Counted from the stretch's first letter, positions 13,273 through 15,420 are shown. The stretch is DNA of 64,000 nt from Escherichia coli (GCF_003790525.1 NZ_CP033635.1); one strand, 5' to 3'. Notes: generated from the sequence alone by a model not told the origin. Translations and numbers: made by a program.

Positions 13273-14329
13273 TCTGTTATTCTCCTGTATTATTACTTCA
13301 CCAGCCAGAACGGTAGTGCGGAGCAAAAATACAGTGATAAGAATCCTCTTTTATTAATTTAATAATGCCAGGAATATTATTGTGTATAATATGCGACCTC
13401 AATTTAAGCAGCAGAAAACGACTGGCATTAAAATCATTAAATTATAAACATATACAACTTTGTAAAGGTGGTTATAATAAACCTGATTACTTTAACGTCT
13501 GTATACCTGCACTGCTGATATCACAAAACAATAAAAATCCTGGTTAATATCTCTGATGATTGAATGAGAAATTCACGATGTCTGGTGAGAATTCTGTTCA
13601 AAACGAGGAATGCAGACGTACATGTGGCAGGCATGGACTTCTACCAATTTAACTTTTTTCCTTCCTTGTATTTACACATTGCACATTTTGCGCTACAAAA
13701 ATTTCACGTGGCACGCACCACGTGATCCGTAGAAAAGCCTCTTGTTACGAATTTCGTAAACCGCACGTCTGTCTGGTCGTGCGGATTTTTTATCCGTCAA
13801 CTTCACATGAAACCCGCCAGAGCACTGTTTCCGGATTCAGACATCAGGCATATTATCATCCACGATGTCGTGAACAAGATCACACTTTTGCAATTCCTTT
13901 ATTGATCGAAAGCAGTTAATCACGGAAATTAATTACCGGAGTGAAAGCATTACTGCATCGTAAATATCTACCATTTTTGACTACACCCTCTGACAGAATT
14001 TTCAGAGGGTTTTTTTATCAGTTTCACCATCCAACCCTGTACGCCAGAATGGTTTCACTGTCACTCAGTTCTGCTATTGCCTTTTTCATCTCCCTTTACC
14101 TTACGTTCTGCCAGAGTCTGAGCCATTTGAACAGGAGGTTATCATTGATATCGTGTTCCCGGGCAATACGGGCAACAGAGGCTCCTGGTTGCAAAGCCAG
14201 TTTAACCATTTGAAGTTTAACTCATTTGAAAATGATCTGCGGGGTTCTGCGGATAATGTTTTTGCTCCATAACAGGCGCCCACCAGTTTGAAAAGGTGGG
14301 CACCTACGTTACCAATACTGGCTTAATGG

Positions 14330-14447
14330 ATACATACGGCGGTCGGTTCTTACGGTAAAACGACACAACCAAACGCTTCTTATCCTGCAATGAACTGCTT
14401 TATTACCGAGTTTAGTGACCGCACAGACACTCACTTTTAAGAAAAAC
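14330..14447 (+). pseudogene. possible C-terminal remnant of a second IS256-family transposase
   Basis: Frame ending ASYPAMNCFITEFSDRTDTHF* parallels the C-terminus of the IS256-like transposase at 10,850 (AMSRFIIEFGDRLSEHL*); short and weak. Confidence 0.25.
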
Positions 14448-14471
14448 AGAATGGTAAACAAACTCCATGAA

Positions 14472-14698
14472 TTACAATAGCTCTCTGGCTGCCGCCACAA
14501 TAGCTTGCGCGGTTAACCCGTACTCTCTCTGTAAAAAGTCCTGAGTTTCAACCTGGCCATACCGCTCTTTAACCCCCACCCGACGCATGGGCACAGGACA
14601 AGTTTCTACAAGCACTTCAGCAACTGCTGAACCTAATCCATTATGAATACGGTCATGACTCCAATTAGTTGAATTAGGGGTATAATAGCCACTTTTAA
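14472..14698 (-). pseudogene. 3' fragment of a transketolase-family (C-terminal subunit) gene, truncated by the adjacent IS1-like element
   Basis: Minus-strand translation ...HNGLGSAVAEVLVETCPVPMRRVGVKERYGQVETQDFLQREYGLTAQAIVAAARELL* resembles the C-terminal domain of transketolase-like proteins; the frame stops abruptly at the IS1-like boundary. Confidence 0.4.
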
Positions 14699-14699
14699 G

Positions 14700-15420
14700 G
14701 TTCTTTCATGGTCACAGTTAACCTTCATTGCTCCTGTTGCCAGTCCGTTCAGGTTTACCGTCACGGGAAGAACCCAAAGGACATGATCGATTTCGCTGCC
14801 GTGACTGTCATCGAGTGCTTCAGCTCACTTACCGTTACGAGGCCCGTAAACCGGGAGTTAAAGAGCAAATCACTGAAATGGCTTTCAACGGTGCCGGAGT
14901 TCGCGATACTGCCCGTACGCTGAAAATCGGCATTAATACTGTCATCCGGACTTTAAAAAACTCTCGCCACGAAGAATAACGTCATACCCGGTCGCTCATG
15001 CTGATATGGCTCTCATCTGCGAACTTGATGAGCAATGGAGTTTTGTCGGCAGTAAAGCGCGACAGCACTGGCTCTGGTACACGTACAACACGAAAACTGG
15101 TGGCGTTCTGGCCTACACTTTTGGCCTACGGACTGATTAAACCTGTCGTGAATTGCTGGCGCTGCTTGCCCTTTTACCATCGGTATGTTGACCACTGACG
15201 AATGGGGTAGTTACACCAGAGAGTTACCGAAGGAGAAGCATCTGACTGGTAAGATTTTTACTCAGCGCATTGAGCGCAACATCTACCTCTGAGAACCCGA
15301 ATCAAACGTCTGGCCCGCAGAACTATCTGTTTCTCGCGCTCTGTAGAACTTCATGAAAAAGTCATCGGTGCCTTTATCGAAAAATATATGTTCTACTAAT
15401 TGGAGTCACCACCTTCGTTT
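14700..15420 (+). mobile_element. IS1-family element remnant (insA-like and insB-like frames, both disrupted)
   Basis: Frames 14708-14923 and 14728-14979 together encode an InsA-like protein (zinc-finger-like N-terminus, then HTH ...GAGVRDTARTLKIGINTVIRTLKNS); the downstream frame (14998-) has InsB-like CELDEQWSFVGSKARQHWLWYTYN followed by stops. Confidence 0.55.

Follow-up and report, generated by a model that had tools for sequence, protein, structure and literature searches.

Composition of the locus

The window, by which we mean the whole stretch of 64,000 nucleotides that was analysed, is chromosomal DNA of Escherichia coli, and its bases 1–25000 are at least 99.6% identical to many complete genomes. 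It carries part of a genomic island, in which the iucABCD aerobactin genes are accompanied by an MFS transporter, a YadA-like adhesin and several IS elements that are dead. The CP4-type backbone of this island includes a ProQ/FinO pseudogene, YagK/YfjJ, an inovirus Gp2-family protein, a GTPase, an antirestriction protein and YeeU/CbtA, and the right end of the island adjoins ynjB at about 29686. ARAGORN located no tRNA or tmRNA genes in the 64 kb, and therefore no tRNA-linked island boundary is visible there. The locus discussed in this manuscript comprises the following features:

14096–14283, minus strand: frameshifted N-terminal fragment of an IS66-family accessory TnpA (NCBIfam, Pfam, PGAP)
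14290–14353, minus strand: IS66-family left terminal sequence (IS682-like) of the same element as the TnpA fragment, with the putative outer end 5'-GTAAGAACCG
about 14387–14465, plus strand: 3' remnant of an IS256-family element, namely its last ~18 codons (AMNCFITEFSDRTDTHF) and the terminal-repeat region
14472–14648, minus strand: tktC', a pseudogene made up of the last 58 codons and the stop codon of a split-transketolase C-terminal subunit of ~317 amino acids
14651–15413, plus strand: full-length but inactivated IS1H-like insertion sequence of 763 bp, with both inverted repeats and Pfam domains
14651–14673 and 15391–15413: left (IRL) and right (IRR) inverted repeats of this element, with 23-nt arms that are 87% complementary (inverted-repeat scan)
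15414–16310, plus strand: backbone of the island on the right side of the deletion, equivalent (98.4%) to the DNA past the LacI-type regulator gene of the paralogous island L012
about 15802–16310, plus strand: frameshifted ProQ/FinO-family pseudogene (PGAP annotation)

The stop codon of tktC' lies at 14472–14474, and the minus-strand translation of 14472–14699 yields 75 residues and a stop, the last 58 residues being IHNGLGSAVAEVLVETCPVPMRRVGVKERYGQVETQDFLQREYGLTAQAIVAAARELL. As shown using phmmer against the PDB, residues 3–56 of tktC' match residues 282–335 of the C-terminal chain (341 residues) of the Carboxydothermus hydrogenoformans split transketolase [2.3e-10; 6yaj]. When 1.84 billion representative sequences were searched exhaustively with HMMER, 695 matches were obtained at E ≤ 0.001; the full-length matches place tktC' at the extreme C-terminus, collinear with the protein ends. 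It falls, with 79% identity, on residues 260–317 of a 319-amino acid protein (P0029) whose cluster is described as ‘transketolase family protein’ of Serratia/Gibbsiella. BLASTP against the intact 317-amino acid TktC of E. coli, which has the Transket_pyr plus Transketolase_C architecture, showed 56 of 58 residues (97%) to be identical over the same interval, and the two genes share 176 of 179 nucleotides (98%) together with the stop codon. One of the differences in tktC' (QVGTQ to QVETQ) affects a conserved glycine that the relatives from Salmonella, Hafnia, Enterobacter and Serratia have in common.

By itself the Pfam Transketolase_C profile is sub-threshold for tktC' (16.6 bits, E = 0.007, with a cut-off of 25.9), and the PDB match, the exhaustive search and the intact paralogue were needed to settle the identity of the fragment. 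That low score could be quoted in favour of a chance match in a short ORF, an idea whose probability is negligible given the 6yaj match, the collinear HMMER matches and the near-identity to an intact annotated gene with the same stop codon, which already refute it. The PDB and HMMER matches thus establish that the tktC fragment is real, and the significant similarity to transketolases on which the original prediction hinged does exist.

The resemblance to the C. hydrogenoformans enzyme (6yaj/6yak) lies in the alignment of tktC' to the C-terminal chain and in the TktN gene adjacent to the intact E. coli paralogue. Unlike that enzyme, however, the window retains 58 of ~317 residues and lacks TktN. 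A complete ORF with a start codon and the pyrimidine-binding domain are absent from these 58 codons, and tblastn revealed no TktN gene anywhere in the 64-kb window, while in the intact paralogous island the TktN gene overlaps tktC. With neither TktN nor the pyrimidine-binding domain left, and with most of the C-terminal domain missing, this tail is unable to specify an enzyme. Judged by its domain architecture, tktC' is a pseudogene derived from a member of the split-transketolase family and not a functional member of it.

The original prediction had put this fragment at 14472–14698 on the minus strand. The fragment stands but its right limit does not: in DNA alignments to the Salmonella, Hafnia and Serratia orthologues and to the intact E. 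coli gene, homology extends to 14650 and is lost exactly at 14650/14651, where the left inverted repeat of the abutting IS1-family element begins. The predicted coincidence between the end of the fragment and the start of the element is therefore exact, at this corrected position. The 48 additional bases up to 14698 are IS1 left-end sequence on the opposite strand, and the first 17 residues of the 75-residue ORF (‘LKSGYYTPNSTNWSHDR’) are likewise IS1 DNA read on the opposite strand.

On the other side of tktC' lie pieces of two further elements. The suspected IS256-like C-terminal remnant is genuine. Its stop codon is at 14438–14440, and in a search of 28 Gb the 59 bp at 14387–14445 matched the 3' end of a pseudogene of E2348/69 annotated as IS256-family (83% identity, E = 1e-6). 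To about 14465 the remnant can also be aligned with the right end (~10830–10930) of the window's own IS1414-like element, so that transposase C-terminus and terminal repeat are both represented, and it ends ~6 bp short of the tktC stop codon. Its 5' limit is uncertain, and its very short 30-amino acid translation gave no NCBIfam profile match. The second element belongs to the IS66 family. The ORF at 14096–14209 gave a partial match to IS66_access_TnpA [8.3e-16; NF038385] and a match to IS66_ISRel24_TnpA [8.9e-12], and Pfam HTH_Tnp_1 was found in the 14096–14283 fragment [1.5e-9]. An IS3 identity for this fragment was rejected, the IS66 TnpA models being far better (8e-16 versus 4e-4), and so was an IS256 identity. 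Positions 14290–14348 are 96.6% identical to the 59 bp directly upstream of the IS682 tnpA in many E. coli genomes, and the outer end of the element, read from the sequence, is probably at 14353. With TnpA and a family-typical terminus present and tnpB and tnpC absent, this is a truncated IS66 remnant.

IS1 elements are recognized by a length of ~760–770 bp, imperfect terminal inverted repeats of ~23 bp beginning with GGT, and a target-site duplication of 8–9 bp. The copy in the window has the length, the GGT-type repeats and the InsA and InsB coding regions. From one end to the other it aligns with an IS1H copy of 764 bp (~92% identity; IS1N, ~80%), and separate pieces of its ORFs contain HTH_Tnp_IS1 [1.4e-30], a partial Zn_ribbon_InsA [1.4e-5] and DDE_Tnp_IS1 [1.8e-21 and 7.5e-12]. 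Relative to IS1H, a 1-bp deletion near 14776 breaks insA' into two overlapping ORFs; insB' has an internal stop (TAA, 15138–15140) and two 1-bp indels, a deletion near 15280 and an insertion near 15380. The copy keeps the A6C slippery motif. Since the indels and the internal stop break the reading frames, this copy cannot make its own transposase and is not autonomous. The earlier description as a degenerate IS1-family remnant is thus correct as to its broken genes; it is not a remnant, being complete from end to end. All IS1 copies at least 99% identical to it are found at this one locus, in 290 genomes, and the ~8% divergence from other IS1H copies may in part reflect a distinct IS1 subtype rather than decay.

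No target-site duplication was found at this IS1: the 9-bp flanks, TATGAATAC and TTCGTTTGT, do not match. Such a loss is expected after IS-mediated deletion or recombination between copies and is no argument against the IS1 identity.

An intact operon in a paralogous island

E. coli DG341-1 possesses, besides the window locus with its deleted copy, a second, paralogous island (L012) in which the operon is intact (NZ_OZ392436.1, 3634627–3639882). The gene order is LacI-type regulator, PTS IIA, IIB and IIC (ascorbate family, UlaA/SgaT), TktN and TktC. Approaching the operon from one side are genes for a GTPase, a Gp2-family protein, an HTH protein, a YagK/YfjJ-like protein and a ProQ/FinO pseudogene, and after TktC come a transposase fragment, a YadA-like protein and a sigma-like HTH protein. 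The backbone genes that L012 has in common with the window, from the YadA-like adhesin through the GTPase, are in the same order.

A blastn comparison aligned window positions 16909–15414 with L012 5831–7327 (98.4% identity) and 14650–13189 with L012 12612–14100 (95.8%). Both alignment breaks coincide to the base with the ends of IS1 (14650/14651 and 15413/15414). Where the window has IS1, L012 has 5,284 bp (7328–12611) in which lie the regulator, the three PTS genes, tktN and the first 259 codons of tktC. L012 serves here as a paralogous comparator with flanks 95.8–98.4% identical to those of the window, not as the direct ancestor at the same chromosomal site. When all six operon proteins were used as tblastn queries against the 64-kb window, TktC residues 260–317 were the only match and no other remains of the operon were found. 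A former metabolic cargo operon had been surmised from the fragment and its end at IS1; L012 bears this out, keeping all six genes where the window has IS1, and the recovery of the intact operon from a related island, as had been proposed, was achieved with DG341-1.

The comparison also permits some relative dating. The IS256 and IS66 remnants occur identically downstream of the intact tktC in L012 and therefore predate the IS1 deletion. The same applies to the ProQ/FinO lesion, because this gene is frameshifted in the paralogous island as well. From which element truncates which, the order of insertion would be IS256, then IS66, then IS1.

Origin of the deletion

We regard the locus as the fossil of a deletion associated with IS1, in an integrative island of E. 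coli that here also carries the aerobactin iuc genes, and assign this reading a probability of about 0.93. A single IS1, endpoints flush with its ends, mismatched flanks and the disappearance of every other trace of the operon are together the signature of such an event. The ancestral island would have carried the six-gene cargo operon (LacI-type regulator, PTS IIA/IIB/IIC, TktN and TktC), into the region of which an IS1H-like element entered. IS1 would then have removed 5,284 bp, reaching from a point just past the regulator gene as far as codon 259 of tktC, either by intramolecular transposition from one IS end of a single copy (adjacent deletion) or by recombination between two directly repeated copies. 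The product would be what is seen today, one IS1 whose ends coincide with the two endpoints of the deletion, and a 58-codon tail of tktC that has neither promoter nor start codon. The IS1 copy would have lost its own transposase genes afterwards.

Adjacent deletion is a classical behaviour of IS1, first described for the gal region of E. coli in the 1970s. The present locus resembles it in the retention of one copy, in a deletion that starts exactly at the IS end, in the loss of the 9-bp target duplication and in the removal of neighbouring genes on one side. It differs in that the event is seen here from its end product alone, and in that the IS1H-like variant is itself defective.

Two IS1H-like copies in direct orientation, one in tktC and the other beyond the regulator gene, would lead to the same end product if they recombined in a RecA-dependent manner, with loss of the intervening 5.3 kb and formation of a single hybrid copy, since this too gives one IS, flush ends and mismatched 9-bp flanks. 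This route is possible, though less likely than not: it requires two independent insertions instead of one, and no genome was found with IS1 at either position and the operon retained. For the latter search two synthetic junction queries were constructed, one joining the IS1 right end to upstream tktC and the other the regulator-side flank to the IS1 left end. Among 5,426 complete E. coli genomes no match to either query covered as much as 80% of it, and no deletion intermediates with IS1 present and the operon kept on one side were found. Because such intermediates were not found, we infer the insertion site and the deletion mechanism rather than observe them.

A further variant of the IS1-associated deletion would make the loss of the operon a selected and not a neutral change (pathoadaptive or niche-adaptive, and carried along with the island backbone), or would have the IS1 end drive a chimeric small ORF across the junction; we consider this very improbable.

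The original prediction spoke of an operon destroyed by IS insertion. Its link between IS1 and the loss holds, but a simple insertion into tktC, to which the wording literally points and with which the abrupt end of tktC' at the IS1 end agrees, would leave the rest of the gene and the operon beyond the other side of the element. The right flank (15414 onward) aligns instead with DNA that in the intact island lies 5.3 kb away, past the LacI-type regulator gene; nothing of the operon other than the TktC tail was detected by tblastn, and there is no target-site duplication. Simple insertion is hereby refuted, and we allow it scarcely any residual probability; the 5,284-bp deletion associated with IS1 is what accounts for the missing operon.

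Distribution, related operons and annotation

The scar was found in 290 of 5,426 complete E. coli genomes, the intact operon in 132 and an intermediate in none. All 290 share the identical scar, and their hosts include humans, poultry, pigs, cattle and dogs. With tktC' DNA as the query in E. coli, the matches listed for the tktC part all spanned the fragment in full and none was longer; the 132 genomes with the whole operon (~77% nucleotide identity), DG341-1 among them, were found with the Salmonella operon as DNA query. Some genomes have both the scar and an intact copy on a second island.

The cargo adjoining the scar differs, with aerobactin/sit in the window and a sul2/floR/integron resistance region in strain 2013C-4991. 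In the latter (L001) the module of IS66 fragment, IS256 remnant, tktC', IS1 and ProQ' stands beside a resistance region (locus 1–14400 versus window 11000–14000) which contains sul2, dfrA36, floR, ISCR2, a Tn3-family transposase and a class 1 integron with aadB/aadA1. With this region occupying the place of the YadA-like adhesin and aerobactin genes of the window, the backbone to the left of about 14000 appears to be a hot spot for rearrangement.

An operon of the same gene order, with an EIIC-GAT/ascorbate-family PTS, adjoins pta-ackA in Serratia/Gibbsiella, Salmonella, Hafnia and Enterobacter, and over the span of tktC' these enterobacterial orthologues show ~75–78% nucleotide and up to 88% amino acid identity. 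The E. coli operon is the same in content and order (regulator, IIA/IIB/IIC, TktN, TktC) but, unlike these, it is located on a mobile CP4-type island and in a minority of E. coli. The ula2 operon of Streptococcus pneumoniae D39 is ascorbate-responsive and also of the PTS (ascorbate family)-TktN-TktC type (PMC4324149); it differs in its regulator, UlaR2, and in that no IIA gene is listed (PMC4324149). A literature search by Salmonella locus tags for this operon returned nothing on its function.

Short transketolase proteins of Salmonella, Enterobacter, Hafnia and other genera, encountered in a word-indexed search, had raised the idea of a widely travelling tktC remnant, which was abandoned since all belong to the syntenic operon beside pta-ackA. 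The short Salmonella and Enterobacter fragments are probably assembly artefacts because the neighbouring pta and ackA genes are split too, as in error-rich assemblies; in Hafnia tktC alone is split. Many short Salmonella/Enterobacter ‘transketolase’ proteins in public databases (P0004, P0007, P0013; L007, L010, L011) come from such error-rich assemblies in which the essential pta and ackA are broken. Such proteins look like pieces of pseudogenes and could distort surveys of gene decay.

RefSeq/PGAP already places three pseudogenes at these positions in matching genomes: ‘transposase, frameshifted, missing C-terminus’ (14108–14283, minus strand), ‘transketolase family protein, incomplete, missing N-terminus’ (14472–14648, minus strand) and ‘IS1 family transposase, frameshifted, internal stop’ (14708–15399, plus strand). 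C6P55_RS24885 (2013C-4991) and ACZ0NA_RS03270 (DG341-1) are of identical sequence, a transketolase fragment next to IS1. The pseudogenes are thus publicly flagged, and all components belong to known families (split transketolase, ascorbate-family PTS, IS1, IS256 and IS66). PGAP does not state what was lost or how, has no label for the IS256 remnant and calls the IS66 TnpA fragment simply ‘transposase’. Added here are the names of the six lost genes, the exact 5,284-bp deletion, the 48-bp boundary correction, the IS66-family assignment of the ‘transposase’ fragment and the unannotated IS256 end beside the tktC stop codon. Beyond annotation the scar has little importance. The junction pair 14650/14651 and 15413/15414 could mark a lineage of the island backbone, and the intact operon of the 132 genomes is a more interesting object of study than the scar.

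Several minor observations concern the remainder of the island. The YadA-like trimeric autotransporter ORF (531 amino acids; 11731–13326, minus strand) has a near-perfect internal direct repeat in which a 36-residue stretch occurs twice, and is adjoined by a sigma-factor-like HTH gene (11214–11669, minus strand). The YadA-like copy of the paralogous island is shorter (1,260 bp versus 1,542–1,596 bp), which suggests variation in repeat number. The iucD gene (332–1665, minus strand) is annotated as frameshifted in the close RefSeq genomes DG341-1 and LR-31; the window has a 425-amino acid ORF at 388–1665. Lastly, the adhesin and the gene for the aerobactin MFS transporter are separated by a second IS graveyard (7700–10930), which contains a frameshifted ISL3-family gene, an integrase-core fragment and the IS256-family (IS1414-like) element; this element has a 386-amino acid ORF (9690–10850) and is annotated as frameshifted in related genomes.
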